DNA of 64,000 bases from Planctomycetota bacterium (GTDB lineage: Bacteria > Planctomycetota > B15-G4 > JADJEK01), in the NCBI GenBank assembly GCA_052034255.1, contig JBPOIU010000020.1, positions 777 to 64,776 of the forward strand, given 5' to 3'. The translations under genes were made by a program, and so were the position numbers. Of the stretch, positions 783 to 62,157 are shown one piece after another (the stretch's first letter is position 1; each line of letters starts with the position of its first letter). The notes under the pieces were generated by a model. That model ran no database searches. It saw nothing but the letters and a program-made list of their open reading frames with translations, and was not told the origin of the DNA.

Positions 783-2042
783 TCAGGTGCCGATGATCTC
801 GCAGAGTCCGTTCGAGAACACAGCGCCCTGCGGGCCCGCTGGGTCGGCTTGGACTGCGTGGTAGTCGAACTCGATGCCGCTCAGGTTTGCGTTGTCCGGC
901 ACCGTGAACGGAAGGACGAAGTCGCCCGCTCCGGCGCCGGCGCCGGGCATCGTGAACGGCACCACGACCCACGGCGAGTTCAGATCGATCAGCAGAGTCC
1001 CACCCGCCAGCGGGACCGAACCCTTCTGCGTGCCGAGGAACAGGACCGTCGGCGCTCCGCCGAGGAAGTCGCGGAACTCGAGCGCCGCGGCCGCGCCGGG
1101 GCACGGCGAGAACAGGCCGCGCAGCTGCGGTTCGAAACCGCCACTGCCGACCATGCTGGCGCCGTAGCTCTTGAACGTGCCGGAGCACGGCACCGCGTCT
1201 TGCGGGACCGCGATGCCGACCAGTTCACCGAGTGCGAAGTCCTGGTAGATCGTCGTGACCTGGCCCGTCGCGTCGATCGAGAACACGCCGCCGTTGCGGC
1301 CGCAGGTCAGCAGCGCTCCGTCGCGCGAGAGCTTGAGGTCGCTCGGGTGGACGAGCACGCCCGGTTGTTCGGCGAAGAGTTCGGCTTCCGCGGTGTCGAG
1401 GCGGAAACGCACGATGCGATTGCCGTTGTACATCGCGCAGAACATGTTGCCCGAGCCGTCGATCACGAGTCCGCCGGGCTGGTCGATCAACGGCGACGCC
1501 GAGAACAGCGACGCGTTCCACTGCGCGTCGTACTTGATGATCGTGTTGCCGTTCAGGTTCGCGACGTAGAGGTTGCCGTCGGCGTCGTACGCGAGTCCGT
1601 CGGGCCAATCGAGCAGGTCGTTCGACATCGCGTCGTCGACTAGCAACGTCTGCGTGCCATCCATCGCGACGTGGATGAGCTTGTTGCCCTTCATGTCCGA
1701 CATGATGAAGCCCGAGCCGTCGCGCGCCGGAATGCAGGTGACCGGCATCTCGAACAAGCCGCCCGCCGACAGCGGCGCGACCTGACCGTTCGGATCGATC
1801 TTCATCATCGCCGGCCAGCCGCGGTCCGGCATGTAGAGATACCCGTCCGGCATGAACGTGCCGTAGTGCGGGATCAGCATCGGGGTCGCCCAGTTGGTGG
1901 CGACCAACGTGTCGGCATCGAGCCGCACGATCGCGCCGACCGACGGCGCGGACAGGTAGTAGTCACGGTCGGACGCCGATGCGGTGGCGGCGACGAAGCC
2001 GAGGGCCAGACAGGACGCCGAGATCGACAACGAGTACTTCAC
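783..2042 (-). CDS. secreted NHL/SMP-30-like beta-propeller protein with the shared C-terminal domain
   Basis: GTG start at 2042 preceded by AGGAGG at 5-nt spacing. Signal peptide KYSLSISASCLALGFVAATASA. Propeller-like repeats (DGNLYVANLNGNTIIKYD, GLVIDGSGNMFCAMYNGNRIV). C-terminal 100 aa alignable to four other proteins in this window (ends SNGLCEIIGT). Confidence 0.7.
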   Translation of the reverse strand: MKYSLSISASCLALGFVAATASASDRDYYLSAPSVGAIVRLDADTLVATNWATPMLIPHYGTFMPDGYLYMPDRGWPAMMKIDPNGQVAPLSAGGLFEMPVTCIPARDGSGFIMSDMKGNKLIHVAMDGTQTLLVDDAMSNDLLDWPDGLAYDADGNLYVANLNGNTIIKYDAQWNASLFSASPLIDQPGGLVIDGSGNMFCAMYNGNRIVRFRLDTAEAELFAEQPGVLVHPSDLKLSRDGALLTCGRNGGVFSIDATGQVTTIYQDFALGELVGIAVPQDAVPCSGTFKSYGASMVGSGGFEPQLRGLFSPCPGAAAALEFRDFLGGAPTVLFLGTQKGSVPLAGGTLLIDLNSPWVVVPFTMPGAGAGAGDFVLPFTVPDNANLSGIEFDYHAVQADPAGPQGAVFSNGLCEIIGT

Positions 2043-2644: not shown

Positions 2645-2729
2645 CGCGTCCTCCGTTCGCAGGGGAGCCTCCGCGGAGGCTCCCACCTTGGAATCGTCCA
2701 GCGCGCCGACGCGCACACGCCGTGCCGCG

Positions 2730-25200: not shown

Positions 25201-25642
25201 GGCCAAACGGCCACTCGGTCGTCGACAGCGCGCCGAAGAGCCGGCGCGACCACCACCATTCCGATTCTGCGCGCAGCGCGCCGTCGAGCGCCAGCACGTA
25301 CCCGCCGCGCTCGACGAAGCGCGTCAGGGCTCCCCGCGCCACGTCGTCGAAGCGCTGCGTCGCCGGGCATGCGAGCACGAGCCCCGCGCGCGCGCCGAGC
25401 GTCGCGTCGCACAACGCGGCCGCGTCCGCCACGAACTCGAGCGGGAGGCCGCGCGCCGTCGCGGTCGTTTGCAGTGCTGCTTCCAGCGCGATCCACTCGC
25501 CGTCGTCGACGGCGCGGTCGCCGACGAACACCAGTACCGGCGGCGGCGGCGGCAACGGAGATCCGTCGTCGCCGCACCCGAGTGTCAGCGTTGCGAGCGT
25601 CAGCAGTGTGGCGAACGGAGCTGCAAGCGCGCGGCGGAGCAT
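22253..25642 (-). CDS. lipoprotein with ThuA-like domain, glucose/sorbosone dehydrogenase beta-propeller, PKD domain, CxxCH cytochrome c domain and C-terminal carbohydrate-binding-like domain
   Basis: Lipobox LTLGC. ThuA-like N-terminus. Dehydrogenase-propeller motifs HEGGSLAF and GYFGWP. PKD YAWDFGDGT. Haem site SGCIACHH. The architecture matches the PVC-type 'membrane-bound dehydrogenase plus haem-binding' proteins. Confidence 0.75.
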   Translation of the reverse strand: MLRRALAAPFATLLTLATLTLGCGDDGSPLPPPPPVLVFVGDRAVDDGEWIALEAALQTTATARGLPLEFVADAAALCDATLGARAGLVLACPATQRFDDVARGALTRFVERGGYVLALDGALRAESEWWWSRRLFGALSTTEWPFGQYEIATVAAADPSLAECVFAQPLVQAQPDSRTHPLLELGDAYGRTPVAWERTYDGGGCVALGLGGTAEVHRSAPVRRVLARAFAAMGTPLRGVEVTRPDDDAFDVDVVLDGLEDPIEIAPLPSGDVLVLERKGALKLYSAASDRVRVIHRFEVACRDESGTHANECGGLGLAVGPNHGVDRFVYVYWSPREPALNRLSRFTLQGDGDAAKLVDERVLLEVGTDRDETTCHEGGSLAFARSGELFLSTGDNTNPFASDGFAPIDEREDRTEWDAQRSAGNSNDLRGSILRIRPNEDGTVAIPDGNLWPPGTAFTRPEIFVKGCRNPYRISVDPLTGDVWWGDVGPDAGDDGHGDPRGVDTLNRARRAGYFGWPFARGGRFYRDRDFASGERGESFADLLVNDSPRNTGLERLPSPTRPFFAYPYGRSSTLPELNDGGRNAMAGPWIHQSLHGGQFPAWFDRVMLFYDWARATFFWLKFDEAGELDGVHRFLAHVSIPHPIDVELGKDGALWILDYGTNWWDNVDGRLLRVRFSSFDKRPKVAIDATPTTGGLPLAVRFSSAGTHDPDGDDARLRYAWDFGDGTASSEASPRKEYAKPGAYDVSLTVTDAAGREGKAMTSIVAGNTAPEVTLFAPATFRWDAPLTYTVEVSDVEDGRANGGPLAAEDALRRADLVAVYVESGDPDDAADVEPDPLLPGMDPRLKGTALLKRSGCIACHHPEQPSVGPAYRQVADALRALDESRRAEEIARLIAKVRAGGAGRYGSVAMPPHLHVPEPSIANMVDAIAALGSDDGLRGKDGTVVIPAAPETAKDAHGIYVLRASYTDRGAAGVAALTRSSKPVVVRAAPLEFALPTAAGEELVIAALDAEIEGTHAEREDECIGSWSDVDTAFTFALHVPRAGAYDVALRYAAPEDQVGSQLVVECDATTFAFTTEATPSWTEFRERELGVLEFSQAGVATLRVKATSRAAAYIANLEALRLRAR

Positions 25643-25770
25643 GCGGCGCGGATCATAGATCACGCTGTCCGAATCCGATGGCGGCCGGTCGGGAACGCGC
25701 GTTGGATTCGGCGTCGGGACCTTCGAACCCACGCCGAAGACTCGCGTGCTCGCGTCAGGGCGGCAGGGCG

Positions 25771-27999
25771 TCAGGGCGTCAGCGGATGATTCGGCCCGGC
25801 GGCGAGGCGGCGCAGCGACCGCTGGATCTCCGCCCGCACGCTGGGCGGCAGATCGGCGTCCGCGGCGCGGGCGGTCAACTCCGCCTCGATCCGCGGCCGA
25901 TCCTCGCAGTACGTGAACCAGCCGAGCGCTTCGGCGACCGTCGCGCGCAGATCGGCGGGCTCTTCCGCGCGCGCCAACACCGCGAACAGGCCTTGCACTG
26001 CGGTCCGCGCCCGCGCGTTGCGGAAGCTGCGCGCCGCATTCAAGCGCTCCTTCGGCTTCTTCGTCGGATCGGCCAGATCGGCGAGCGATGAGTCGACCAG
26101 GCGGAACACGAACGGCTCGATCTCGCCAAGACGCTTCAGGCGCGCATCGGACTCCGGCAACGACTTCCGCAGCGCGGCGAACGCCGCTTCGATCGGCTCC
26201 TTGCGGTAGCAATGCAGCGCGTCGCGCGCGTTGAACATCACGCGCTCCGACGGGTCGTCGAGGGCGAGCTCGAGCACGGCCGCCGCCGTTTCGTCCAGCC
26301 CACGCTCACCGGTGAGGATCACCGCGAAACGTCGCACCAGCTCGTTCGGATCGGTGAGCGCCGTCACGAGCGCGCGATCGAGAGCAGGACCGCGGCGAGC
26401 GGCCAACCGCCGCAGCGCCTGCAGCCGGACGACGTGACTCGCGTCGGCGGCGACGATCGTCGCGAGCCGCGCGTCGTCGATCGCGTCGCGCTCGCCGAGG
26501 CGCGCGATCGCGACTTCGCGCAGCACGGGATCGGCGGATTCGAGAGCCACACGCAGCGCGTCGACGTCGACGTCGCGAGCCAGCGCGGCGACCAAGGCCG
26601 GCGCCGGCGTCGCGGCGAAATGAGCGGTCGGATCGCCGAGCAGCATCGATTCGAGCTGCACGCGCTGGCGGTGCCACTGGCCGATGCGGACGCCTTGTCC
26701 GAGTTGCCCGATGAACTCGTGCAACCACAGGTCTTGCAGCACGTTGACGGAGTTCGCGACGACCGCCACCGCGTCGCTCGCACTGAACAGGTAGGCGCCG
26801 GCGATGTACGGCGATTCGATGAAGCGGCCGTTGAAGCACTCGTCGAGCACCAGCATGCGCGCGTGCGTTCCGGAGCCCTGTGCGTCCTCGACGTGCAGAT
26901 CGCGGTTCTTGTCGTCGGCGTCGTCCGCAGCGACCACGACCGGATCCGCGACGCCGTCGAACCACGATTCGGGCAACGCGTACTTCTGCATCAGCTCGAG
27001 CTTCGCGGCGTCCACGGCCGCCGGGTCCTTCTTCGCCGCGGAACGCAACCGCGAGCGCAACACGCTCTTCACCGCGTCGACGCGCGCCTCCAACGTGCCT
27101 GCCGGAACGTCGCCGATCAGGAACTGCAGATCGGTGTCCCCGTGAGCATGGAACAGCGCGAGGTCGAGCGTGCGATCGCGCAGGGCGACGATGACGCGTT
27201 CCTTCATGCGCTCGCCGATCTGATGGTGCAGCGTGTCGATGCGCCCACCCGGCCGATCCAACTGCGGGAACACCTGCTGCAGCGTGTCGACCTGCGCACG
27301 CCAGGCTTCGAGCGATTCCGAGTGGTAACCGTGCCCGGCGACCGACAGCGCGTGATCGAGCCGGCGCGGCACGTCCTTCCCCGTGATGCACTTGCGCAGG
27401 AAGCGCGCGATCGTGGCGGTACGCTCGGCGTTCGCCGGCCCGGGCACGATGCGCGCGCTGTAGATCTCCTTGTCGACGCGCTGCGCGGAGTCGGGGAGCA
27501 GCGCCACGTAGTGCAAGCGCGGGTCCTCGGGATCGCGTTCGGCAGGCGCGAAGCGGAGGTCGAAGTCCTCGTAGAAGCGGTCGCTCGGCACCGAGCTCCG
27601 CAACCGTGGGAACACGACTTGGTCCATCTTGAACGCGCTGGTCAGATGCTGCGCGTCGCGCACCATCGGCACGGGGACGTCGCCGATGAACACGACCCCT
27701 TCGAGCGGCGGATGCGTGCCGTCGCCGCGCCACAGCCCCTCGAGGCGCTCACGTAACGCGAACGGCTCGTCGAACGTCTCGACGATCAACCAAGTCGGCA
27801 GCGCGTCCGCGCGCTCGATCGCGGCGCGATAGGCATCGACGGGGATCGGATCCGCGGCGTAGGTCGCTTCGTCGACGACGATCGCGAACGACGTCGTCGC
27901 TCCGTCGATGGCCGTGGGTTCGACGACTTGCCCGGAGAAGGCCGACGTCGCCGCACACCACCAGGCCACGGTTCCGAGCACACTCGCATGGGCAGTCAT
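25771..27999 (-). CDS. secreted protein with putative clan-CD (C25/caspase-like) peptidase domain and C-terminal HEAT repeats
   Basis: Signal peptide MTAHASVLGTVAWWCAATSAFSG. Candidate His/Cys dyad at FHAHGDTD and LVLDECFNGRF. C-terminal repeated LxxALxDPxxxVRxxA HEAT/PBS-lyase-like units. The peptidase call is tentative. Confidence 0.45.
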   Translation of the reverse strand: MTAHASVLGTVAWWCAATSAFSGQVVEPTAIDGATTSFAIVVDEATYAADPIPVDAYRAAIERADALPTWLIVETFDEPFALRERLEGLWRGDGTHPPLEGVVFIGDVPVPMVRDAQHLTSAFKMDQVVFPRLRSSVPSDRFYEDFDLRFAPAERDPEDPRLHYVALLPDSAQRVDKEIYSARIVPGPANAERTATIARFLRKCITGKDVPRRLDHALSVAGHGYHSESLEAWRAQVDTLQQVFPQLDRPGGRIDTLHHQIGERMKERVIVALRDRTLDLALFHAHGDTDLQFLIGDVPAGTLEARVDAVKSVLRSRLRSAAKKDPAAVDAAKLELMQKYALPESWFDGVADPVVVAADDADDKNRDLHVEDAQGSGTHARMLVLDECFNGRFIESPYIAGAYLFSASDAVAVVANSVNVLQDLWLHEFIGQLGQGVRIGQWHRQRVQLESMLLGDPTAHFAATPAPALVAALARDVDVDALRVALESADPVLREVAIARLGERDAIDDARLATIVAADASHVVRLQALRRLAARRGPALDRALVTALTDPNELVRRFAVILTGERGLDETAAAVLELALDDPSERVMFNARDALHCYRKEPIEAAFAALRKSLPESDARLKRLGEIEPFVFRLVDSSLADLADPTKKPKERLNAARSFRNARARTAVQGLFAVLARAEEPADLRATVAEALGWFTYCEDRPRIEAELTARAADADLPPSVRAEIQRSLRRLAAGPNHPLTP

Positions 28000-28108
28000 C
28001 GACGAGAGTCTCCACGAACTCCGGGTGCCCGGCCGCAAGGGTCGGGCATCGATCCGAATCCGTCGGGATATGGAGCTCGCGCCCATATCCCGACGGTTCG
28101 GGTGCGCG

Positions 28109-29671
28109 TTACGGCAGACGGATCTCGATCGCGTCCGCCGCACCGAGGTTCGCCGCGTTGTGGAACGGGTCGTCCACCAACAGCACGAACATCGCGGACA
28201 GGTTCAAGCCGTTGACTCCCGGCGGCACGGGCAAAGCGATCGGCGGCTGGACGCCGAGGGCCGAACCGCCCGGGTTCGAGATCCCGTTCAGGAAGATGAA
28301 GAACGGGAAGTTCGGATCGAGCCACAACCCGGGAGTCGCATCGCCCGGGATTTGCAGCGGCGCCGGCGGGTTGCCGGTCAAGAACGGCTGCATCAGCAGG
28401 ACCATCCCGTTGCCCGTCAACGATCCGTTCGGCGACTGGAAGCCGAGCGTGATCGTGTCGCCCGCGAACACCGGATAGATTCCCGCCGGATTCGGCACGA
28501 ACAGACCGTTGATCGCGACTTGCATCGCCGCGTCGGTGCCGTTGCCCGGGTACGCCGGTCCCAGCACGGGGACGACCGCGACGCAACGCGGCGTCCCGAA
28601 GTCGACCGCGGCCAAGGTGTCGGTGTAGACCGTCGCTTGCTCGGCCCCCGCGATCGTCCCGCTGTGATCGGAGTCGGTCAGCACGTACAAGCGGTCGGGC
28701 GCGCCGTCCTCACCGACGTACAGCGAGCCGTCCTGCGCGACGTCGCACTGCCACATCGTCGATCCGGCGCCCGCGAAGAAGAACTGCGAGAACTCGCCCG
28801 CGCCCTGCGCGTCGCCGCTCGCATCGGCGTCCTTGATCTTCCAGCACAGATCGTTGCCGTGGTCGAGGACGTACACCTCGTCGGTCGGCGTGCGCGCGAA
28901 CCCGAAATGGAACGCATTGCCCGCTTGGGCCGGCGCGATGAAGTACGCGTTGACCTCGTTCGGCTGATCGATGACGCCGCTGGCGTCCAGATCCACGAGG
29001 CGATACACGCCGCGCTTCGGCGTCGCGGTGATGCCGTTCTCGAGGTACAGGACCGTGCCATCCGACAGCACCAGCACGTCGTTCGGGATCGAGTCCCCGA
29101 CCGCACCGCCGGGCGCCGGCTTGAAGAACACCGTCGCCTCGCCGACGTCGTTGTAGTCGTCATCGGAGTTCAGATCGTCGAGATGGAACACGAGGTCCTC
29201 GCCCGTCACCACCGACGAGATGATCTGGTTGTTGCTCGCGACCCAGACCCGCCCGCTCGGCTCGACGTACAGCGAGTTGCCGGACACCATGCGCACGTTC
29301 GACGCGTTGCCGCCGACCGTGCCGTCGAACACGACGACCGCCTCGCCGACGTCGTTGGCGTCGCCGTCTTGATTGAGGTCCTCGAGGCGGAAGATCCGAT
29401 CCTCGGTCGTATCACTGACGAACAGTCGACCGAACGCGTCGAACGCCAAGCCGGTCGGATCCGATAGCGCGATGGCACCGACGGTGTCGTCGTAGAACGC
29501 TGTGAGGTCTCCGGCGTCGTTCACGTCGCCGTCGCCGTTGTTGTCCACGCACAGCCACAGCTTGTCGCCGGCGGTGTCGGACACGATCGTCGGCTGGATC
29601 GTCGCCGCGGATGCGGAACTCAGGATCGCGGCGGTCGCGAGCGCGACCCCGTGGACTCGACATCGGTTCAT
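28109..29671 (-). CDS. secreted repeat (beta-propeller-like) protein with Ca-binding-like DLNxDGDxNDxGE motifs and the shared C-terminal domain
   Basis: ATG at 29671 with GGAGAG at 5-nt spacing. Signal peptide. Five or more repeats of D(N/L)NxDGDxNDxGE...F. C-terminal 100 aa alignable to the other four proteins. Confidence 0.65.
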   Translation of the reverse strand: MNRCRVHGVALATAAILSSASAATIQPTIVSDTAGDKLWLCVDNNGDGDVNDAGDLTAFYDDTVGAIALSDPTGLAFDAFGRLFVSDTTEDRIFRLEDLNQDGDANDVGEAVVVFDGTVGGNASNVRMVSGNSLYVEPSGRVWVASNNQIISSVVTGEDLVFHLDDLNSDDDYNDVGEATVFFKPAPGGAVGDSIPNDVLVLSDGTVLYLENGITATPKRGVYRLVDLDASGVIDQPNEVNAYFIAPAQAGNAFHFGFARTPTDEVYVLDHGNDLCWKIKDADASGDAQGAGEFSQFFFAGAGSTMWQCDVAQDGSLYVGEDGAPDRLYVLTDSDHSGTIAGAEQATVYTDTLAAVDFGTPRCVAVVPVLGPAYPGNGTDAAMQVAINGLFVPNPAGIYPVFAGDTITLGFQSPNGSLTGNGMVLLMQPFLTGNPPAPLQIPGDATPGLWLDPNFPFFIFLNGISNPGGSALGVQPPIALPVPPGVNGLNLSAMFVLLVDDPFHNAANLGAADAIEIRLP

Positions 29672-31708: not shown

Positions 31709-31821
31709 CGGGCGGGAGCTTATCAGCCCATCGAAACGGGATCACGTCGACGAAAGCGCGCCACGCGTCGAGGCCCGGCGATACCGTGCGCGTCCTCCCT
31801 GTTGCGCCGAGGAGCGCTCCG

Positions 31822-34329
31822 ATGCTGCGCGTCACGACCTTGCTCACCGGACTCGTCGCGTTGGTCGCGCTCGACGCCAACGCGCAAGGAACACGCGCCG
31901 ACTACGCGCGCGCCGCCGCGCTGCAGGATGCGACGGCGCGCGCCGTCGACGGCGCGCTCGGGCGGCCGCGCTTCATCGGCAACGGCGATCGGTTCTGGTA
32001 CCGCGTACGCACCGGTGCGGACGCGACGCGCGTCGTGGTCGTCGACCCGGAGCGCGGGACGCGCGAACTCGCGTTCGATCCGTTGCCCCTCGCCCGCCAA
32101 CTCGCGGAACTCACGAGCCTCGCGGTCGACGGCGAAGACCTCGCGCTCGAGCGGCTCGAGTTCGACGACGACCTGCGCTTCGCGCGCTTCACGTTCGGCG
32201 GCGCGCGGTGGTCGTTCGAGCGCGCGACGCGCACGCTCACGCGCCTCCCCGCCGATCGTGCCGCACCCGGGATCGATCCGCGGCAGGCGCCGTTCTCGAG
32301 GCCCGGTGGCGACGGCGTGTCGCTGGTGTTCGAGAATCCGACCGCCGAAGCGGTCACGCTGATCTGGGTGGATCCCGATGGCGGTCGGCGCAGCTACGGC
32401 TCGTTGGCGGCCGGTGGCACGCGCGGGCAATCCACGTACGTGGGACACGTATGGATCGTCGTCGACGCGCGCGGGGAGGATCGCGTCGCGTTCGTCGTCG
32501 CCGAGGACATCGATCGATTCGTCGTTCCGACCGACGCGGTGCGGGAGTCCGCTGTGCCGGATCGGAGTCCGGCGAGCCCGCCCGGGAGCGCGACGGATCC
32601 ACATGTCGAGGACGGTGCGCTCCTCGTCCGCGCGGAGGACGGCACGACGATGCGGCTCGACGCAGGCCTGGGCCAACGCTTCCGCGACGACCTGTATCCG
32701 TCGGCGACGGGATCGCATCTCGTCGCGATGCGCGCGCCGATCGTCGAGGAGCGCCGGATCCCGTTGATCGAGTCCTCGCCGTCCGACCAAGTGCAGCCGA
32801 AGTGGCGCACGATCCCGTACGCGAAGCCAGGCGATCCACTGGAGATCGGCGTGCCGGCGTTGTTCCGCCGCACCGCGCGCGGACTCGAGGAGATCCCGAT
32901 CCAACCCGCCGACGTGTTCGCCTCGCCGTGGGCGATCGACGACGTGCGCTGGGCGCGCGATGCATCGCGCTTCACCGTCCGCTACGTCGCGCGCGGCCAC
33001 TCCGCGCACCGCCTGATCGCGATCGACGCGGAGAGCGGCGTCGCGACCACGCTGCTCGAGGACGCGTCGGCGACGTTCGTGGACACCACGCAGAAGACGT
33101 TCCTGCATTGGATCGACGACGGCGACGACGCGTTGCTTTGGATGAGCGAGCGCTCGGGCTGGAACGGGCTCGAACTCGTGGACGCGCGCACCGGAGCTCG
33201 CACGTCGATCACGCCGCCCGGCATCGTCGTGAAGCGCGTGGTGCACCGCGACGACGGAGCGCGCCGCGTGTGGTTCATCGCCTGCGGCCTGCACGCTGCG
33301 GAGGACCCGTATCACGAGCACCTGTGCGCCGTCGGCTACGACGGCTCGAGTTTCGCGCAGCTCACGAGCGGCGACGCGACCCACGACATCACCTTCACTC
33401 TGTCGCGGCGGTTCTTCGTCGACGTCGCATCGCGCGTGGATCTGCCGCCGGTGGCGGAGTTGCGACGCACGGTCGACGGCAGTCGGGTGGTCGCGTTGGA
33501 ACGCGCGGACTGGACGCGACTCCTGACGACGGGTTGGCGACCGCCCGAACGTTTCGTCGCCAAAGGTCGCGACGGCACGACCGACATCTGGGGCATCCTG
33601 ATCCGACCGTCGCAATTCGATCCGGCCCGCAAGTACCCGGTCGTCGAGCAGATCTACGCCGGCCCCCACGATGCGCATGTGCCGAAGGAGTTCGCCGCGT
33701 TCTCCGGCGCGCGCCGGATGGCCGAGCTCGGCTTCATCGTCGCGCAGATCGACGGCATGGGCACCAATTGGCGCAGCAAGGCCTTTCACGACGTGTGCTG
33801 GCGCAACCTCGCCGACGCCGGGCTCCCCGACCGCATCGCTTGGTTGCGGGCCGCGGCGGCGACGCGCCCCGAGATGGACCTCACCCGGGTTGGCATCTAC
33901 GGCGGCTCGGCGGGCGGGCAGAACGCGCTCGCCGCGCTGCTGCATCACGGCGACTTCTACTCCGTCGGCGTGGCGGACTGCGGCTGCCACGACAACCGCA
34001 TGGACAAGGTGTGGTGGAACGAAGCGTGGATGGGCTACCCGATCGGCCCGTGGTACGCCGAGAACTCGAACGTCACGCACGCCGCCGCACTGACCGGGAA
34101 GCTGCTGCTGATCGTCGGCGAACTCGACGCGAACGTCGACCCGGCCTCGACGATGCAGGTCGTGAGCGCGCTGATCGCGGCGGACAAGGACTTCGACCTG
34201 CTGGTCATGCCGGGAGTCGGCCACGGTGCCGCCGAATCGGAATACGGCTCGCGCCGACGGGCCGACTTCCTGGTGCGCCATCTCTGGGGGGTCGAGCCGC
34301 GAGCCCCCGAGGCCGCCGCCGCGCGCTGA
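31822..34329 (+). CDS. S9 family peptidase (DPP-IV-like propeller plus prolyl oligopeptidase alpha/beta hydrolase domain)
   Basis: Signal peptide. C-terminal catalytic region GIYGGSAGG (GxSxGG nucleophile elbow), ELDANVDP and GVGHG (His). N-terminal about 300 aa of unknown function. Confidence 0.8.
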   Translation: MLRVTTLLTGLVALVALDANAQGTRADYARAAALQDATARAVDGALGRPRFIGNGDRFWYRVRTGADATRVVVVDPERGTRELAFDPLPLARQLAELTSLAVDGEDLALERLEFDDDLRFARFTFGGARWSFERATRTLTRLPADRAAPGIDPRQAPFSRPGGDGVSLVFENPTAEAVTLIWVDPDGGRRSYGSLAAGGTRGQSTYVGHVWIVVDARGEDRVAFVVAEDIDRFVVPTDAVRESAVPDRSPASPPGSATDPHVEDGALLVRAEDGTTMRLDAGLGQRFRDDLYPSATGSHLVAMRAPIVEERRIPLIESSPSDQVQPKWRTIPYAKPGDPLEIGVPALFRRTARGLEEIPIQPADVFASPWAIDDVRWARDASRFTVRYVARGHSAHRLIAIDAESGVATTLLEDASATFVDTTQKTFLHWIDDGDDALLWMSERSGWNGLELVDARTGARTSITPPGIVVKRVVHRDDGARRVWFIACGLHAAEDPYHEHLCAVGYDGSSFAQLTSGDATHDITFTLSRRFFVDVASRVDLPPVAELRRTVDGSRVVALERADWTRLLTTGWRPPERFVAKGRDGTTDIWGILIRPSQFDPARKYPVVEQIYAGPHDAHVPKEFAAFSGARRMAELGFIVAQIDGMGTNWRSKAFHDVCWRNLADAGLPDRIAWLRAAAATRPEMDLTRVGIYGGSAGGQNALAALLHHGDFYSVGVADCGCHDNRMDKVWWNEAWMGYPIGPWYAENSNVTHAAALTGKLLLIVGELDANVDPASTMQVVSALIAADKDFDLLVMPGVGHGAAESEYGSRRRADFLVRHLWGVEPRAPEAAAAR

Positions 34330-42550: not shown

Positions 42551-44164
42551 TCAGGGCGCGAACACGAGCTCGAGGCCGTTGCTGAGGCCGACGCCCGCCG
42601 CCGCCGCGGGATCCGGAACCAACATCTGCAGCACGAGTTGGACGCCCGCGACTCCCGTCGGGGTCGTCGTCGGCAACGTGATCGCGCCGGAGCCGTCGAG
42701 CGGCAACACGATCGACGTCTGGAACGGGAACGCGCGCAGCGTGCCGTTCGCGTACGGAACGTTCGACGGCGGACCGACGTGGATCAACAGCGTCGCGGGA
42801 GCGAGCGGCTTGCCGTCCTCGTAGCGCAGCGTCAGCGGCGTTCCGGAGACCAGCGGGCCGGCGCCGCGCAGCTTCGCGAAACCGTTCGACGCCGCGTTCG
42901 CGCCGGTGTGGATGTTCCAGTCACCGCCATAGTTGTGGAACGCGAGCAGCGCGCCTTCGTCACTCGCGAATGCGCTCTTGCGGCCGACCAGCAGATGGAT
43001 GCCCGAGGTGGCCACCGCGGAACCGAGCTCCGCGTAGGGCGCCGCGACGAGATCGGGGAACGGCGCCTCGAGCGTCTCGCGCTCCGGCCAGTTCGGGAAC
43101 ACGAACTCGAAGCGCACGACGTCCTCGCTCGACGCCAGGTATGCCGACTGACCGAGCAGCGCGACGCCCTGACCGAAGTCGTCGCTCGGGCCACCGGCGA
43201 TCGGCAACAGCTTGCCCTTCTGCGTCCACGTGCCGATGAGGTCGAACACGTAGCCGGCGCCGCTCGCCTCGCTGTCGAAGTTCCACGCGCCCGGCGCGCC
43301 GACGATGACTCGCGTGCCGTCGATCGCGCACGACGCGCCGAAACGGCGATCGGTGACCGGATCGAGCGGGTTCAGCTCGGCCTGGATCGTCCACACCACG
43401 CCCGGGCCGGACGTGTCGCGCAACACGATGACCGCGCGACCGGAGTTGGTCCGCGGCGGCGCCACATTGTCGAAGTCCGGCGAGCCGATGACCGCGCGGT
43501 TGCCGCCGAAGTCGACCGACGAGCCGAAGTGCTCGTTCACTTGCGGACTGGTCGGAACGATCTTGCCGGTCTGCGTCCACGTGCTCGAGATGTTCTCGAA
43601 GCCGTACGCCGAACCCGAGTCCGACAGCGGCGCGTTGTCGTTCGGCGCGCCGACGACGAGATGCGTCACCTGCGCCGCGACGGCCGAGCCGAACCGATCG
43701 CCGGCCGCGGTGTCGTTGCCGTAGACCTTCTGGTCGAGCACCCAGAACGGCACGCCCATGAACACGATGCGCTGGTAGACGTAGACGGCGCCGGCATCGA
43801 CGCCGAGATCGTCATCGCCCGGCGCACCGACGTACACCGTCGTCCCCACCACGGCGACCGACGTTCCGAACTGGTCGCCCGCTTGGCCATCGCTCGCGAC
43901 GAGTCGCAGGCCGGCGCTCCATGCCCCGCCGACGTAGTCGTGGATGTAGACGCATCCTCGACTCGCGTCCTCGCCCGGCGCACCGACGATCGCGCGATCG
44001 CCGTCGACCGCGACGGACGCGCCGTACAGCGCATCGTCGTCGAGATCCGACGGCTCGATCGTGACCGGATAGACCAGCGGCCGCACGGTCTGGGCCGAGA
44101 CCGTCGCGACCAGACACGAACACACGGACGCGAACGTCCACAACACGCGCAGCGACGACTTCAT
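42551..44164 (-). CDS. secreted FG-GAP-like repeat beta-propeller protein with the shared C-terminal domain
   Basis: ATG at 44164 with GGAGAG at 7-nt spacing. Signal peptide MKSSLRVLWTFASVCSCLVATVSA. Repeats of the type FG(A/S)SVA..GD.AIVGAPGDD. C-terminus ends SNGLELVFAP. Confidence 0.75.
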   Translation of the reverse strand: MKSSLRVLWTFASVCSCLVATVSAQTVRPLVYPVTIEPSDLDDDALYGASVAVDGDRAIVGAPGEDASRGCVYIHDYVGGAWSAGLRLVASDGQAGDQFGTSVAVVGTTVYVGAPGDDDLGVDAGAVYVYQRIVFMGVPFWVLDQKVYGNDTAAGDRFGSAVAAQVTHLVVGAPNDNAPLSDSGSAYGFENISSTWTQTGKIVPTSPQVNEHFGSSVDFGGNRAVIGSPDFDNVAPPRTNSGRAVIVLRDTSGPGVVWTIQAELNPLDPVTDRRFGASCAIDGTRVIVGAPGAWNFDSEASGAGYVFDLIGTWTQKGKLLPIAGGPSDDFGQGVALLGQSAYLASSEDVVRFEFVFPNWPERETLEAPFPDLVAAPYAELGSAVATSGIHLLVGRKSAFASDEGALLAFHNYGGDWNIHTGANAASNGFAKLRGAGPLVSGTPLTLRYEDGKPLAPATLLIHVGPPSNVPYANGTLRAFPFQTSIVLPLDGSGAITLPTTTPTGVAGVQLVLQMLVPDPAAAAGVGLSNGLELVFAP

Positions 44165-44387
44165 CTCCGTACTCTCCATAAAGTTGAATCGCGGCGCGCA
44201 CGGCGTGCATCGAAGAAGCGGCACGCGTCCGGACGCGTGGACCCATTGCCTGGGCCCACGGTCCGCGACAGCAGCGGCGCGAATCCCGTTGGGGCGTCAA
44301 GCCCACATCCGCGCGCGCGGCGGCGGATCACGGCGAAAATCGAGTCGATTTCGCGAATCCTGCGGGGGTCGGAGCCGGCACGGCATC

Positions 44388-46862
44388 ATGGATCGCGTGA
44401 CGACCATCGACGAAGACTCGCCCATCGACGCCGTGCTCGAGCGCCTGCCGCAACTCCACCGGCTGGCGCACGCGTTGACGCACGACCCCGCCGCTGCCGA
44501 CGACCTCGTGCAATCGACGGTCGAGATCGCGCTGCGCAAGCCGCCCACGTTGCGCGCGGCATGGCCTTCGTGGCTCGGGCGCGTGATGACCAACCTGGCC
44601 CGACAACGCGGCCGCGGCGAGGTTCGCCGCCGCTGGCGCGAACGCCTGGTCGCGGCGCCCGAAGCCCTCGAATCGACCAGCGCCCTGGTGGAGCGCCACG
44701 ACATCCGCGTGCGCTTGATGCACGCGGTGCGCGCCCTCGACGAGCCGTACCGCCGCGCGGTCCTGCTGCGCTACTTCGAGGACTTGCCGGTGCGGGCGAT
44801 CGCCGCGCGCGACGGCATTCCGCACAAGACCGTCGAGTCCCGCCTGACGCGTGGGCTCGCGAAGCTGCGCGAACGACTCGATCACGAGCACGCGGGCGAT
44901 CGCCGCGCCTGGCTCGTCGCGCTGGCTCCGTTCGCAAAGGCCATGCACACCCCCCTCACGCTTGCCGGAGTCGTGGTCATGAAGTCGTTCGCCGTCTCAT
45001 TGGGCGTGTTGACTCTGGTGTGCACCTCGTGGTGGATGCTGCAGGACGACGAGCCCGCGACCCCGCCGACGCCCCCGACCGCCGCCGCGGCCGAACGCAA
45101 CGAAGCTCACGACGCCACGCCCACTCCGTCGGCGCCGCCGAATGAGATCGCTCGCACCGAGACGCCCACGGAACCGGCGAGCGAAGCACCGGCGGTTCCT
45201 CTACTGCGCGGCCTCGTGCTCGACACCGAAGGCAAGCCCGTCGGCGGCGTCCGCCTGAGCGTCGCCGTCCGGGACGCCACCGCGCTCGAGTTCACGCTGG
45301 TCAGCGACGCCGACGGCCGTTTCTCGCTCCCGGCGCGTGAGGCCGCTCTGGACATCGCGGCAGCGGACCCGCGGTACACGACTGTTCTCGAAGCGGCGAT
45401 CATGCGCACACCGAACCTCACGCAGCCGCGCGAAGTGCACGTGATCGTCGCGGCGAACACGCGCATCGAAGGTCAGGCGGTCGACCCGTCGGGCACGCCG
45501 ATCGCGGAGGTCGCGGTCGAACTCGCGCCTCCGGACGCGGTCCGGGCGTTGTTCGCCATCGATCTCAGCGCCAATCGTGCCCGCACGCTGACCGCGTCGA
45601 CCGACGCGAATGGCCGCTTCGTGTTCGAAGCCGCGCCGGCCGTCGCGGGCTCGCTGTGCTCGGGGACGAAATCGGGGTACGTCGCGGCGACGGAGGTCGT
45701 GCGGACGTTCCCGCGCAGCGATCTCCGACTCGTGCTGAGCCGGCCCACCGATCAAGCGACGCTGCGCGGCATCGTCTACGACCCGACGGGGATTCCGCTC
45801 GAAGCGGCCTACCTCGCGCTCGGCTCGCTGCCGACGCGCTCCGACGCGAACGGCATGTTCACGTTCGAATACCCGCGCGCGGAGCCACCGGAACGCCTGC
45901 TCGCGGTCGCGCCCGGGCTGAGCGCCAAAACGTTGGAGCGCCCCGCCGAGGAATGGCCGGCCTTCGTCGAACTGCGGTTCGAAGGCGCCGCGCCGAGCAT
46001 CGACGGTGTCGTCTACGGCCCCGACGGCCAGCCGAAGCCGGGCGCGAACGTGTGGATCGACGAGCCGACCGTGTTCGGCCAAAGCAACGGCAACTTCTGG
46101 CTCGCCGAGTGCATCACGAGCGGGTCGACGGCGATGCAGCACGGCGCCACGACCGACGCCGCGGGCCGCTTCCGGATCGAGGGTCTCGTCCAGCGAGAGT
46201 ACGGACTGCGCGCCGTCATTCCCGAACTCGCTTGGCAGATCGACGCGGGACGCGCGCAGGCCGGCGACGCGGGCGTCGAGATCCGCTTCCCCACTGCGAG
46301 CTTGCACGAACGGATCGAAGGCCGCGTGCAGGATGGTCGAGGCCACCCCGTCGCCGACATCGACGTACGCGTCACGGCGATGCTGCCCGTCGCCGCGGAC
46401 CCCGTGTCGCTGCAACGCTTCTTCGACAGTGTGGTCGGGTCCACCTCGCGTTCCCGCGCCGACGGCCGATTCACGCTGAACGACGTCCCGATCGGCGCGC
46501 AGATCGAGGCGATCGGACCGGGACTCGAAATGGACCCGACGTGGACGGTGCCGACCACGCTGCCGGATCCGATCGTGCTGCAGGTGTACCGGCGCTTCGC
46601 GTTCCGCGTCGAGCTGACATCGACGCCACCCGGCGCCGCGTACGTCGCATTGCGCGACGTCGACGACCGCGAGGTGCCGATGACGCGCTTCTCGCCCGGT
46701 CGCGTGGACGTCCTGCCGCGCGTCGCGCTCGTCGACGGCCGCTCCGAGCGCATGACGACCCAAGACCGCGCGACCCAGTTATTGGTACTCGACGAGCGGT
46801 TCGCCGAGCTCGTGCGCATCCCCATCACGTACGCCGGGGACGAAGTCACGGTCGTGCGCTGA
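44388..46862 (+). CDS. ECF sigma factor fused in frame to a TM helix and about 600 aa of periplasmic CarboxypepD_reg-like repeats
   Basis: Sigma-70 region 2 (DDLVQSTVEIALRK) and region 4 (YRRAVLLRYFEDLPVRAIAARDGIPHKTVESRLTRGLAKLRERL). About 30 aa downstream lies the TM helix MKSFAVSLGVLTLVCTSWWML, then five units of the type LRGxVxDxxGxPxxgaxVxv...dGrFxf. No stop separates the sigma and membrane parts. Confidence 0.7.
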   Translation: MDRVTTIDEDSPIDAVLERLPQLHRLAHALTHDPAAADDLVQSTVEIALRKPPTLRAAWPSWLGRVMTNLARQRGRGEVRRRWRERLVAAPEALESTSALVERHDIRVRLMHAVRALDEPYRRAVLLRYFEDLPVRAIAARDGIPHKTVESRLTRGLAKLRERLDHEHAGDRRAWLVALAPFAKAMHTPLTLAGVVVMKSFAVSLGVLTLVCTSWWMLQDDEPATPPTPPTAAAAERNEAHDATPTPSAPPNEIARTETPTEPASEAPAVPLLRGLVLDTEGKPVGGVRLSVAVRDATALEFTLVSDADGRFSLPAREAALDIAAADPRYTTVLEAAIMRTPNLTQPREVHVIVAANTRIEGQAVDPSGTPIAEVAVELAPPDAVRALFAIDLSANRARTLTASTDANGRFVFEAAPAVAGSLCSGTKSGYVAATEVVRTFPRSDLRLVLSRPTDQATLRGIVYDPTGIPLEAAYLALGSLPTRSDANGMFTFEYPRAEPPERLLAVAPGLSAKTLERPAEEWPAFVELRFEGAAPSIDGVVYGPDGQPKPGANVWIDEPTVFGQSNGNFWLAECITSGSTAMQHGATTDAAGRFRIEGLVQREYGLRAVIPELAWQIDAGRAQAGDAGVEIRFPTASLHERIEGRVQDGRGHPVADIDVRVTAMLPVAADPVSLQRFFDSVVGSTSRSRADGRFTLNDVPIGAQIEAIGPGLEMDPTWTVPTTLPDPIVLQVYRRFAFRVELTSTPPGAAYVALRDVDDREVPMTRFSPGRVDVLPRVALVDGRSERMTTQDRATQLLVLDERFAELVRIPITYAGDEVTVVR

Positions 46863-56662: not shown

Positions 56663-59113
56663 TCAATACGTGATGCGCACGTGCTCGACGTTCGACAGGT
56701 TCGCCTTCGTGCCGCTCGACACGATGGCTTGGAATGCGACGTCGAACGGCGCCGGCAAGTTCGGCGGCAGCGGCAGCGCGAGGCTGCTCGGCGCGCTGGC
56801 CCACGGCAACACCAAGATCGGCAGTCCCGTCTGGATGAACAGCGTGCCGTAGTCGCCGAGTTCGGCCTGGCCGTCGAAGCCGATGACGAGCAGCGTCGCG
56901 AGTGCCGGCGTCCCGGTCACGTCGAACGTCAGCGTGCCGCCCGAACCCGCGAAGCCGGTGATCTGCAATCCGACGTTCGTGAACTCGAATGCGCCCATGT
57001 CGAGCCGGCGCACGCCATCGAGATTGCCGTCGGTGAAGCGCGGTGCTCCACCGGCGTCGGCGCCCGTGGCGCTCGCGCTCGGCGTCGCGGTCTCGACGCA
57101 CGGCGAACTCGCGAGCAGGCGCAGATCGCCGCTCGTGGCCGCGACGAATTGCGGGTTCCCGCCGATGTTGCCGTTCGAGCCTTGGAACTGCGCACTACGC
57201 GAGGAATGGACGCGCGCCGCGCTCAACCCGACCGTCTCGGCGCCGGCCGTGCCGAACACGATCGAGTCGAGGACGTCGCCGGTCCAGCCCGTGGCGACGA
57301 TGCCGGCGCCGTTGCCGCCGTGGACGGTCGCGTTGCGCACCGTGAACGAACCGCCCGACAAGCGCAGTCCGGCGTCGTTGCAGCGATCAGCGACGAAGTC
57401 GCGCGCGTCGCCGGACAGCGCCGACACGCGAATCCCGTCGTGCGCGCCGAAGTCGGCGCGGACGCCGCGCGCTGAAACCGCACTCGAGTCGAGGTTGACG
57501 CACGGCGTGAAGCCGACACCGGCGTAGCGCACGCGCAGCCCGGCGATCGAGCCGCTGCTGCCCGCGGCGTACGACACACCGCTCCACGTGTCCGTCAGGC
57601 CGACCGTGGGACCGTCGCCGTTCGTGTCGCCGCCGAACTCGTCGTCCTTCAGTGTCGTGAACACGACCGGCTCCGATCCGTCCGCGACGACGTGCATCGT
57701 GCCGGACACCGCGGTCGAGCCGTGGCCTTCCCATTTGAAGATCGCGCCGCGCTCCAGCGTCAGCGTCTGGCCCACGGGAACCGTCAGCGTCGTCGCCATC
57801 ACGATGCCGCCGTTCACGACGTTGCGCTTCGAGATCGTGGTCGGCTGCGTGACCACGCCGTTCGTCACGCGCAAGAACTGGCCGGGCTGCGTGCCGAGCG
57901 CCACGCAATCGACGAACGCCGAGACCGCGGTGATCGGCAGGTTGTTGACCGCCGTGTTGAAGTTGTCCTGGAACGCGCAGCGCAGGAACGTCGGCGACGC
58001 CGGCTGTCCGTTGAAATCGATCGCGGAGTGCTGGCCATCGCGCAGCAAACAGTCCGTGACCGTGATGTCGGCGCCGAACAGTTCGAGCGCCGCCGTGAAT
58101 CCGACGCCGGTGTACCGCACGACCGTGTTGCGCAGCGTGCTCGCACTCGCGGTCGACTGGAACGCGAGTCCGCTCCACGTGTCGGTCGCGCCGACCGACG
58201 GGCCGTCGTTGTTCGTGTCGCCGCCGTATTCGTCGTCCGGCAAGTACGTGAACACCACGGGGTCGTTCTGCTCGCCGTCGGTGATCAGCGTGCCGCTGAT
58301 CGCGAATTGGACACCGAACGTGACCTTGACGACGACACCCTCCTGCAGCGTCAGCGTGGCGCCGCTCGGCACGCTGAACGTCGACGGGAACACGAGCGCG
58401 TCGTTCAACAGGTCGTCGGTCGTGATCTCGATCGCACCGGTCATCGTCGAGGCGCCGACGCGCACGTAGTTGCCGACGCCGGTCCCCGTCGCCGTGTTGC
58501 CGGAGAACTGGGGCAGCGCGTCGAGCGTGACGCCGGTGATGCTCGGCTGACTGCCGGAGTTCGTCAGCGTGCAGGACGTCACGATCGGCAGCGCGCCGTT
58601 GTTCAGCCGCAGCAGGCCGTGCTTCCCGTCGCGCAACACGCTGCGCGTGAGGGTCAAGTTCGACTGGTCGATGTCGATCGCGGGAGCGAAGCCGACGCCG
58701 CAGAAGCGCACGTCGACGCGATCGAGCACGCTCGCGTCGGACGCCGGTCCGAAGCCGAGGCCGCTCCATTGATCGGGCTGGCCGAGCGACGGTCCATTGC
58801 CGTTCGTGTCGCCGCCGGCCGAGTCGTCCTGCTGCGACGTGAACACGATGGGTTGCGCCAGCGTGCCGATCGCCGACAGCGTGCCTTGGACGTTCAACCC
58901 GCTGCCGTTGAACTTCAGGATCGCGCCGGGCTGGATCGTCAGCGTCTGGCCGACCGGAACGGTCAGTGTGCCGCTCGCGTGATAGACGCTCCCCGAGGTC
59001 AGCGGCCCACCCGAGCCGTCGAACACCGAACCGGACAATGGCACTTGCGCGCGAGCGAACGCGGACAGCGCGACGACAACGAGCGAGGCGAGAACGGGAC
59101 GGGGAGCGTGCAT
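56663..59113 (-). CDS. secreted right-handed parallel beta-helix repeat protein with the shared C-terminal domain
   Basis: Signal peptide MHAPRPVLASLVVVALSAFARA. Many imperfect 22-25-aa beta-helix coils (Gly/Asn/Thr/Val-rich; motifs such as RVRYAGVGF and CLLRDGQH repeated). C-terminus ends SNVEHVRITY. Confidence 0.7.
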   Translation of the reverse strand: MHAPRPVLASLVVVALSAFARAQVPLSGSVFDGSGGPLTSGSVYHASGTLTVPVGQTLTIQPGAILKFNGSGLNVQGTLSAIGTLAQPIVFTSQQDDSAGGDTNGNGPSLGQPDQWSGLGFGPASDASVLDRVDVRFCGVGFAPAIDIDQSNLTLTRSVLRDGKHGLLRLNNGALPIVTSCTLTNSGSQPSITGVTLDALPQFSGNTATGTGVGNYVRVGASTMTGAIEITTDDLLNDALVFPSTFSVPSGATLTLQEGVVVKVTFGVQFAISGTLITDGEQNDPVVFTYLPDDEYGGDTNNDGPSVGATDTWSGLAFQSTASASTLRNTVVRYTGVGFTAALELFGADITVTDCLLRDGQHSAIDFNGQPASPTFLRCAFQDNFNTAVNNLPITAVSAFVDCVALGTQPGQFLRVTNGVVTQPTTISKRNVVNGGIVMATTLTVPVGQTLTLERGAIFKWEGHGSTAVSGTMHVVADGSEPVVFTTLKDDEFGGDTNGDGPTVGLTDTWSGVSYAAGSSGSIAGLRVRYAGVGFTPCVNLDSSAVSARGVRADFGAHDGIRVSALSGDARDFVADRCNDAGLRLSGGSFTVRNATVHGGNGAGIVATGWTGDVLDSIVFGTAGAETVGLSAARVHSSRSAQFQGSNGNIGGNPQFVAATSGDLRLLASSPCVETATPSASATGADAGGAPRFTDGNLDGVRRLDMGAFEFTNVGLQITGFAGSGGTLTFDVTGTPALATLLVIGFDGQAELGDYGTLFIQTGLPILVLPWASAPSSLALPLPPNLPAPFDVAFQAIVSSGTKANLSNVEHVRITY

Positions 59114-60438: not shown

Positions 60439-62157
60439 ATGTCCGTGCTCTCCCCCGTTCGCGCCGTGTTGATCGGCGCGACGTGCGTGCTTCCGACTGC
60501 CCAGGCCCAATCCGTGCTCTTCACCGCCGCGGGCGACAGCGCCAACGACACCTTCGGTCAATGCGTCGACATCGTCGGTGACGTCAATGGCGACGGCTTC
60601 GCCGATCTGATCGCCGGCGCCTGGCGCGACGATCCCTCCGGCAAGAGCGACGCCGGCACGGTGCGCGTGATCTCCGGCAAGACCGGGCTGACGTTGTTCA
60701 CGATCCCCGGCGATCTCGCGAACGATCACATGGGATTCGGATCGAGCGGCGCCGGCGACGCGAACGGCGACGGCTTCGCCGACATCTGCGCCGCGGCGGA
60801 CGAAGCCGACGTCGGTGGCTTCGTCAACATCGGCGCGGCGAAGATCGTGTCCGGCGCGACCGGCGCGACGCTGTTCTTGATCCAAGGCGACAACGGCGCC
60901 GACCTGTTCGGTTGGTCGTCCGCGTACGCCGGTGACTGCAACGGCGATGGTCGCGGCGACACCGTGCTCGGCTCGCTGCAAGACGACACGACGGGCAAGA
61001 CGAACTGCGGTTCGGCCGCGGTCCATTCGGGCGCGAACGGCGCTCTGCTGTGGAAGGCGTTCGGCGGACTCGCGAACGACACGCTCGGCGATGCGGTCGG
61101 CGGAGTCGGCGACGTGAACGGCGACGGCTTCGACGATGTGATCGCGGGCGCGCCCAGCGCCGATCCGGCAGGCGCGAGCTCCGGTCAGGCGCTCGTCTTG
61201 TCCGGCGCGAATGGCGCCGTGTTGTTGACGATCAACGGGAACTCGGCGAGCGACGGGCTCGGCGGCTCGGTGTCGGGTGCCGGCGACGTCGACCTCGACG
61301 GCGTGCCGGACATCGTGGTCGGCATCCCGGGCGAGGACAACACCGGCGCGAACTCCGGCAACGTGCGCGTCGTGTCCGGCGCGACCGGAGCCGTGCTGTG
61401 GTCGTTCGACGGCGACTCGGCCAGCGACAACCTCGGCGTCGCGGTGCGCGGCGCGGGTGACGTCGATGGCGACGGCTACGCCGACATCGTCGCCGGAGCG
61501 AACGGTGATGACGACAATGGCGCGGCGTGCGGCGCGCTGCGCGTCTGGTCCGGCAAGACCGGCTCCGTGCTCGCGACCTTCTATGGCGACGCGGCGGGCG
61601 ACGGCCTCGGCATCTCCGTCGGCGCCGGCGGCGACGTCGATGGCGACGGCTTCGACGACGTCTGCGCCGGAGCCACCGGCGACGACGACGGCGGCGCGGC
61701 CTCCGGCACGATGCGCGCGTTCTCGTTGATCCCGACGGGAGTCGACACGTTCGGAACCGGTACCCCCGGTTGCGGCGGAACCACTCGCCTGAACGGCAAT
61801 CGCGTGCCCAACGTCGGCGCCGCCGACTTCGCATTGATCGGCGACAACGCCCCGCCCGCCACCGTGGGCTACTTGCTCGTCGGCGATGCGGCTGACGTGC
61901 CCGGTACGCTCGGATTCGGCAGCAACGCGCTCATCCACGTGGCCCTGCCGCCGCTGAGCAGCTTCTTCTTCCTCGGCAACTCGTTCGCCGACGCAAAGGG
62001 TTCGCACGTCGCACCGGTCCCGCTGCCGGCGTTGCCGCAGCTCGCGGGCTTCCAGGCGACGTTCCAAACCCTGTGGGTCTGGCCGACGCCGTGCCCCAAT
62101 CTGGGACCGTTGAACGCCAGCTCGTCGAACGGCGTCACGATCACGATTCAACCGTGA
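60439..62157 (+). CDS. secreted FG-GAP repeat (integrin-alpha-like 7-bladed propeller) protein with the shared C-terminal domain
   Basis: AGGAG RBS. Signal peptide. Seven repeats of the type GDVNGDGFADLIAGA / DxDGDGxxD. C-terminal 130 aa ending SNGVTITIQP. Confidence 0.8.
   Translation: MSVLSPVRAVLIGATCVLPTAQAQSVLFTAAGDSANDTFGQCVDIVGDVNGDGFADLIAGAWRDDPSGKSDAGTVRVISGKTGLTLFTIPGDLANDHMGFGSSGAGDANGDGFADICAAADEADVGGFVNIGAAKIVSGATGATLFLIQGDNGADLFGWSSAYAGDCNGDGRGDTVLGSLQDDTTGKTNCGSAAVHSGANGALLWKAFGGLANDTLGDAVGGVGDVNGDGFDDVIAGAPSADPAGASSGQALVLSGANGAVLLTINGNSASDGLGGSVSGAGDVDLDGVPDIVVGIPGEDNTGANSGNVRVVSGATGAVLWSFDGDSASDNLGVAVRGAGDVDGDGYADIVAGANGDDDNGAACGALRVWSGKTGSVLATFYGDAAGDGLGISVGAGGDVDGDGFDDVCAGATGDDDGGAASGTMRAFSLIPTGVDTFGTGTPGCGGTTRLNGNRVPNVGAADFALIGDNAPPATVGYLLVGDAADVPGTLGFGSNALIHVALPPLSSFFFLGNSFADAKGSHVAPVPLPALPQLAGFQATFQTLWVWPTPCPNLGPLNASSSNGVTITIQP

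Follow-up and report, generated by a model that had tools for sequence, protein, structure and literature searches.

Gene content and tails of the window

We analysed 64,000 nucleotides of a Planctomycetota genome (contig JBPOIU010000020.1; "the window" hereafter means this whole stretch), in which an earlier note had proposed that five otherwise unrelated secreted proteins end in one conserved, undescribed domain, possibly a sorting or anchoring tag. We call the proteins p1 to p5 and define "tails" as their C-terminal segments and "passengers" as the parts upstream. The guanine-plus-cytosine (GC) content of the window is about 69%. Several features indicate that the five reading frames are real genes: the GC content at third codon positions (GC3) is about 0.9 in each, a GGAG-type ribosome-binding site precedes the proposed starts, and the extensions of the open reading frames (ORFs) upstream of those starts have a GC3 of about 0.5 and look non-coding. 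All five translations, read directly, begin with a Sec-type signal peptide, and behind it each protein has a single-copy tail slot at its C-terminus. The genes and their Pfam assignments are:

p1, 783-2042, minus strand: signal peptide and SGL/NHL beta-propeller
p2, 28109-29671, minus strand: signal peptide and Ca-motif propeller (Pfam gives only weak propeller and EF-hand-like matches)
p3, 42551-44164, minus strand: signal peptide and FG-GAP_2 propeller
p4, 56663-59113, minus strand: signal peptide and beta-helix
p5, 60439-62157, plus strand: signal peptide and FG-GAP propeller

Only one pair of tails is convincing by direct comparison. The p1 and p3 tails are 28% identical over 127 amino acids (aa), with a Smith-Waterman z of 10 that none of 500 shuffles reached, while the other nine pairs were not significant in the same test (z from -0.9 to 2.0, near the tail-versus-passenger controls). 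We therefore turned to HMMER and searched 1.84 billion representatives exhaustively, with an alignment (A2) of the p1, p3 and p5 tails only as the seed; p2 and p4 were kept out of the seed as tests. A hidden Markov model (HMM) was then built from the best 150 database tails, with no window sequence among them, and run on all ORFs of the window. This database-only HMM matched p1 at E = 1e-41 (137 bits), p3 at E = 5e-24 and p5 at E = 1.6e-19; no other window ORF fell below E = 0.6, and p2 and p4 were not matched at E < 10. The three tails scored 65-137 bits and their shuffles at most 13 bits, and for p5 the tail scored 70 bits and its best shuffle 10.6. Profile-to-profile alignment to the family with hhalign gave probabilities of 99.9% for p1, 99.3% for p3 and 98.7% for p5. 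Because an HMM made solely of database sequences finds all three, we regard the p1, p3 and p5 tails as clearly homologous on sequence evidence. The tails are delimited as follows:

p1 tail, 786..1190, minus strand: type A, full length, 135 aa (HMM, hhalign, structure prediction)
p2 C-terminal 150 aa, 28112..28561, minus strand: equivalent in position to the tails of its homologues, no detectable similarity to the family
p3 tail, 42554..42916, minus strand: type A, 121 aa (HMM, hhalign, p1-p3 Smith-Waterman comparison)
p4 tail, 56666..56947, minus strand: probable divergent, N-terminally shortened form, about 94 aa (HMM against shuffles, hhalign, phmmer, jackhmmer)
p5 tail, 61732..62154, plus strand: type A, 141 aa with insertions (HMM, shuffles, hhalign)

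The p4 tail probably belongs to the same family as a divergent, N-terminally shortened member. It is a marginal match: the 150-sequence HMM gives it 11.0 bits, a score that 1 of 2000 shuffles attained, and with a broader HMM it has 16.5 bits, attained by none of 2000 (empirical p <= 5e-4). In hhalign it aligns to the family over 76 columns with 82% probability (P = 1e-5), compared with 0.1-5.7% for ten passenger-segment controls. It is in register with the tails of the database proteins P0113 and P0043 in phmmer, and jackhmmer started from it converges on the family, although it lacks the conserved Asp and most of the Gly-rich hairpin that opens the domain (YGxGxxGSGGxxPxL). Just upstream, p4 residues 664-711 give a sub-threshold NCBIfam match to the choice-of-anchor Q family. 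The protein P0073, considered as a p4 orthologue with a canonical tail, was rejected, as BLASTP shows no similarity between the passengers.

Membership of p2 is unsupported by any of the sequence comparisons. Its tail scores 0.6 and -0.8 bits against the HMMs, equal to its own shuffles; hhalign probabilities against every tail type described below are 1-6%, with 1-2%, inside the passenger-segment control range, for type A; and jackhmmer from this tail recovers only three near-identical orthologues. The p2 tail type is common only to P0151-P0153, and an AlphaFold2 (AF2) model built from three near-identical sequences has a predicted local distance difference test score (pLDDT) of 38, which is unusable. 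By HMM, hhalign and shuffling, the proposal that five tails share one domain was thus confirmed for p1, p3 and p5 and is probable for p4, and it fails to find support for p2. The segment originally assigned to the domain in p5, 61765-62157, falls inside the copy as now delimited, and the original length of about 100 aa was too short, the measured length being about 125-135 aa.

Size, anatomy and distribution of the family

The exhaustive search returned 2671 cluster representatives (50% identity) at E <= 1e-3, of which 127 lie at E <= 1e-10. The earlier note had recommended a wide HMM search and had expected many more copies of the domain, and both this count and the tandem tail-bearing genes of related genomes bear it out. 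Word-indexed homologue searches found no match with the p3 tail and three with an alignment of 48 tails. Members were inspected individually among the best 150 matches, to which the following description applies unless stated otherwise.

The family consensus sequence is SCAGGLEAYGAGLAGSGGFVPRLSGSGCPALGAAVTLEIEDGLGGAPALLLVGLAKASVPFLGGTLLVDPP...GVAGAGSLSLPLTIPNDPALVGLSLYLQALVLDPGAPKGVSLSNGLEVTIGS, and its landmarks can be written as YGxGxxGSGGxxPxL...lGGA...PxxGGtLLV...GxaGxG...iPxDPxLxG...Q-x4-D...SNGLe. The Q-x4-D element is nearly invariant in the type A alignment (A4), and the same spacing occurs in types B-D (FQaWyRD). A Ser is conserved within the N-terminal GSGG of the family alignment, and the weak Foldseek matches include adhesin repeats with intramolecular ester bonds. 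In 149 of the 150 best matches 0-5 aa separate the end of the domain envelope from the C-terminus, and no protein among them carries two significant copies in tandem or otherwise. The same position recurs in the genomic loci that were fetched, where the domain reaches the stop codon in 25 of 26 tail-bearing ORFs; of the 20 GTDB species-representative loci, L021 is the only one in which it does not end there. A hydrophobic N-terminus is present in 85 of 96 full-length members.

With the p1 tail as target and alignment A4 as input, AF2 returned an all-beta model of 10 strands with a pLDDT of 98.0 and a predicted template-modelling score (pTM) of 0.90. The beta-sandwich anticipated by the earlier note was thereby obtained. 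According to this model the domain is an autonomous 10-strand sandwich of immunoglobulin-like (Ig-like) type; it superposes on Ig, MG and FN3-like sandwiches, which places the predicted structure in the Ig-like fold class. Its structural matches in the PDB are generic only (Ig-like, MG-domain and transglutaminase-barrel).

The passengers are highly varied. Eighty-eight full-length members match 48 Pfam families in the passenger part, among them three FG-GAP types, BNR, NHL/SGL/Vgb_lyase, subtilase S8, M14, M28, CHRD, galactose oxidase, Kelch and HEAT, so by Pfam assignment the domain sits on dozens of unrelated passenger folds. The passengers had been called completely different; this holds across the database and is an overstatement for the window, in which p3 and p5 share the FG-GAP type and four of the five are propeller-like. 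What stands is the general observation that a module recurs at the C-terminus of Sec-exported proteins whose passengers vary, and we consider it real.

Tail genes also cluster. Three occur in tandem at locus L003 and two each at L005 and L015; at L003, in a metagenome-assembled genome (MAG) labelled Phycisphaeraceae, positions 1261-5927 (plus strand) hold three consecutive genes with type A tails (E 1e-33 to 1e-38), which indicates local tandem expansion. Taken with the three to four copies in the 64-kb window, these flanking genes lead us to an estimate, which is not a count, of about a hundred or more copies per genome.

As far as sampled, sequence matches confine the family to Planctomycetota. 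All matches with an organism name belong to this phylum, and of the 20 GTDB species-representative loci, 19 are titled Planctomycetota (including Saltatorellus ferox) and one only "uncultured bacterium". A search with full-length p2 found its closest homologues in Saltatorellus ferox Poly30, Engelhardtia mirabilis and MAGs of Planctomycetota. A protein identical to p3 occurs on only two Logan contigs.

The C-terminal slot and known sorting systems

To see what else the tail position can hold, we compared the C-termini of 55 homologues of the p2 passenger (P0151-P0205). They end in differing modules of about 110-150 aa, which fall into the following types:

Type B (n = 15): YCGPAvaNSsG...GNLCLgG.IGR...W.FQaWyRD...SNFsD
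Type C (n = 6): YCTaGTS..GC...LCVK...QaQ.WYRDPP...TNLs.ALEF
Type D (n at least 4): GDG...CPCGN...GC.NS...GDGLRC
Type E (n = 11): short, A-like
Type F (n = 2), type A (n = 1) and the type of p2 itself (n = 3)

Types B, C and D are Cys-rich. In hhalign comparisons the probabilities were 97.6% for E with A, 92% for A with C, 72% for A with B, 97% for B with C, 97% for B with D and 88% for C with D, and the alignments show a common Q-x4-D...[ST]N signature near the C-terminus. These comparisons indicate that tail types A-E are related and have been swapped repeatedly on homologous passengers. In one homologue, P0202, the slot holds instead ...VVPEPAGWLLVLISLVHLAALSRTR, whose order of VPEP, transmembrane (TM) helix and RTR reads as a PEP-CTERM signal; the NCBIfam match of this C-terminus to the PEP-CTERM family is weak and sub-threshold (E 7e-4). 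Together with the choice-of-anchor Q match of p4, P0202 suggests that the tail slot is the position of recognised sorting signals in relatives. Visual inspection of the P0200 and P0203 C-termini picked out repeats resembling dockerin DxNxDG; Pfam did not confirm them and they are not used as evidence.

The domain family is missing from Pfam and NCBIfam as judged by profile searches. The tails of p1-p5, the family consensus and types B-E have no match at E <= 1 in Pfam (2025 copy) or NCBIfam r20, the tails have none at E <= 10 among PDB sequences, and no Pfam family covers the tail in the 88 full-length members. The comparison with sorting-domain models suggested earlier was part of this search: the T9SS (type IX secretion system) and CTERM models held in Pfam and NCBIfam gave no tail match, nor did the models for dockerins and carbohydrate-binding modules (CBMs) in Pfam for the tails, the consensus or the types. 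We found no description of the domain in the literature searched. "Undescribed" is therefore an apt term with respect to Pfam, NCBIfam and the PDB sequences.

Among known systems, the nearest in outline is the CTD (C-terminal domain) carried by T9SS cargo (Por_Secre_tail, PF18962/TIGR04183). In both cases Sec-exported proteins end in a single folded beta-sandwich, with many unrelated passengers (proteases, adhesins) and many copies per genome; a C-terminal Ig-like sandwich on proteins with signal peptides is what the tail family presents. The differences are substantial. T9SS CTDs have about 70-100 aa and 7 strands, and the tail domain exceeds this, with about 135 aa and 10 strands. It has no sequence match to PF18962, TIGR04183 or TIGR04131, T9SS CTDs are not among its best structural matches, and the host phylum is Planctomycetota. 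The window's own genes (PSCyt1, PSCyt2, PSD1 and DUF1501) and the Planctomycetota homologues place it outside Bacteroidota and the wider FCB (Fibrobacteres-Chlorobi-Bacteroidetes) group, and T9SS is described as confined to Bacteroidota in two papers (PMC5445135, PMC10515386). Another case is the sulfatase Amuc0953 of Akkermansia muciniphila, whose final C-terminal domain was noted as T9SS-CTD-like by authors who suggest a comparable surface-translocation system (PMC13524802). This organism also belongs to the PVC (Planctomycetes-Verrucomicrobia-Chlamydiae) group, but to a different phylum, Verrucomicrobiota.

PEP-CTERM (TIGR02595/PF07589) uses the same C-terminal slot, as P0202 illustrates, but it is a motif of about 25 aa with a TM helix and a basic tail, whereas the tail domain has neither of these and is a soluble beta-sandwich of 135 aa. 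The five C-termini, read directly, agree with the earlier statement that TM helix and basic tail are absent and that PEP-CTERM does not apply, and its companion, that the hallmarks of T9SS CTDs are lacking, is matched by the silence of the T9SS CTD models. Since Pfam, NCBIfam and PDB sequences gave no match, we take the domain to be neither a T9SS CTD nor a PEP-CTERM signal. The window does encode a PEP-CTERM-type tail elsewhere. An 807-aa VIT-domain protein at 8205-10628 (minus strand) ends in ...PEPETYLMLALAGLALFFVRARRGGGA; it scores 15.8 bits with TIGR02595 (cutoff 16) and 97 bits, below cutoff, with the XrtN-system VIT family. The genome thus appears to use exosortase-type sorting beside the beta-sandwich tails.

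Dockerin, CBM and S-layer homology (SLH) modules offer another comparison, as these too are single terminal modules common to diverse secreted proteins, which they localise via a common partner. They tolerate either terminus, and the protein P0080, discussed below, suggests the same for the tail domain. By sequence and by fold, however, the tail domain matches none of these families. The MG and Ig-like beta-sandwich domains of CD109, A2M and C3/C5 and the C-terminal barrels of transglutaminases are also among the closest known systems.

Several other genes of the window deserve mention:

16934-22338, minus strand: DUF1501 protein adjoining a 1309-aa PSCyt1/PSCyt2/PSD1 protein, a gene pair typical of Planctomycetota and Verrucomicrobiota
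22253-26212, minus strand: 1319-aa multidomain protein with ThuA, GSDH (glucose/sorbosone dehydrogenase), PKD and DUF5077
25771-28143: HEAT-repeat protein, following the preceding gene
31786-34329, plus strand: S9 prolyl oligopeptidase/DPP-IV-like protein with an N-terminal VHL beta domain match (PF01847, E 1.2e-8), unusual in a bacterial peptidase
44184-46862, plus strand: 892-aa protein in which extracytoplasmic function (ECF) sigma-70 regions 2 and 4 are fused to several CarboxypepD_reg and Big-like repeats; the gene adjoins p3 and is divergent to it, and the same layout occurs at locus L001
49344-54402, minus strand: cluster of MoxR AAA ATPase, DUF58, BatA/VWA and VWA genes (aerotolerance Bat-like operon), located where the GC content of the window peaks (about 72%)

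Possible function of the domain

Position and architecture make a sorting or anchoring role plausible, though unproven. We tentatively prefer, as a reading that falls a little short of probable, a common localisation handle formed by the folded tail, which one shared partner would recognise after Sec export. A tail-bearing protein would first be exported by Sec, and its folded beta-sandwich would then serve as the handle. The single partner that recognises it would be either a receptor on the cell surface or a machine for export or attachment in the outer membrane, and would direct the passenger to the cell surface or retain it there. Such a scheme would follow the logic of T9SS CTDs or dockerins by analogy, without homology to either. 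A localisation role is plausible because the slot in the p2 passenger family holds either related tail types or a PEP-CTERM signal. A bolder version, in which types A and B-E would be the cargo signals of a post-Sec secretion or surface-attachment system in Planctomycetota, an independently evolved analogue of T9SS with some hundred or more substrates in each genome and with types interchangeable between orthologous cargos, we consider unlikely.

Several observations weigh against a localisation handle. The sorting role is backed by neither a partner gene nor a cleavage motif nor an experiment, and Ig-like beta-sandwiches are very common as non-sorting modules in secreted proteins. Across the 20 loci and the window there is no conserved neighbour beside the tail genes; the comparison yielded a generic ABC ATPase and synteny of orthologues, and nothing more. 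The family members examined have no flexible-linker composition before the domain, and the last residue of the domain is not conserved. Member-level inspection covered the best 150 of 2671 matches, and taxonomy was sampled from the p2 full-length search, cluster look-ups and one genome scan, the last with a narrow alignment biased to tails containing G[LT]AGSGGFV. Finally, the domain of P0080 (479 aa) is N-terminal: it occupies residues 27-159, immediately behind the signal peptide, and a propeller-like region follows. No other of the 150 members is built this way, and P0080 may be either a rare rearrangement or a sign that the module needs no free C-terminus; its arrangement suits a module for binding or anchoring better than a translocation signal that has to be C-terminal.

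Much of this would be expected if the tail were an Ig-like module of an ordinary kind, with a structural, adhesive or ligand-binding task (as a stalk, in binding proteins or glycans, or in oligomerisation), that is C-terminal by lineage habit and has no part in sorting or export. The generic character of the structural matches, the missing linker, the variable terminal residue, the N-terminal copy in P0080 and the lack of a partner gene adjoining tail genes all agree with such a module, as do the many adhesin-like propellers (FG-GAP, BNR, NHL) among the passengers, on which an Ig-like stalk would be natural. Modules of this kind, however, are usually also found internally or in tandem, and the tail domain is terminal in 149 of 150 members and tandem in none. 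Nor do the passengers form one functional class, as peptidases and oxidases are among them, and the same slot in homologous passengers can hold a PEP-CTERM sorting signal. On this balance the ordinary module, the main rival, is a serious possibility, if a somewhat doubtful one.

Two further explanations fare much worse. That the tails are far-diverged members of a known sorting family (T9SS CTD type A/B, PEP-CTERM, MYXO-CTERM or GlyGly-CTERM) is very improbable: a C-terminal sandwich on secreted proteins is T9SS CTD architecture in outline, and a T9SS-like CTD has been proposed in Akkermansia, another PVC bacterium, but the libraries, including their T9SS and CTERM models, and the PDB sequences gave no match, the tails lack the TM helix and basic tail, and size, strand number and host phylum all differ from those of T9SS CTDs. 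The least credible is that the five-way resemblance reflects composition (Pro/Gly/Leu-rich, high-GC coding sequence) and not homology, one of the outcomes that the earlier note had named as refuting it. It does hold for p2, whose scores equal those of its own shuffles, and most pairwise comparisons are indeed not significant. For p1, p3 and p5 the shuffles rule it out, given the distance between 65-137 bits and at most 13; the p4 tail exceeds 1999 of 2000 or all 2000 of its own shuffles, depending on the HMM, and AF2 folds the family with a pLDDT of 98.

To our knowledge, the transport of folded proteins to the unusual cell surface of Planctomycetota is poorly understood, and we know of no C-terminal-domain cargo signal described for the phylum. 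The tail family is a concrete handle on this problem: its HMM lists candidate cargos and is a basis for phylogenetic profiling to seek the machinery, and two cultured hosts, Saltatorellus ferox and Engelhardtia mirabilis, are available for proteomics. Should the domain be only a structural Ig-like module, it would still be a new domain family annotating thousands of "hypothetical" proteins. What is new is the family itself, which behaves like known C-terminal localisation domains and for which such a function in Planctomycetota is plausible.

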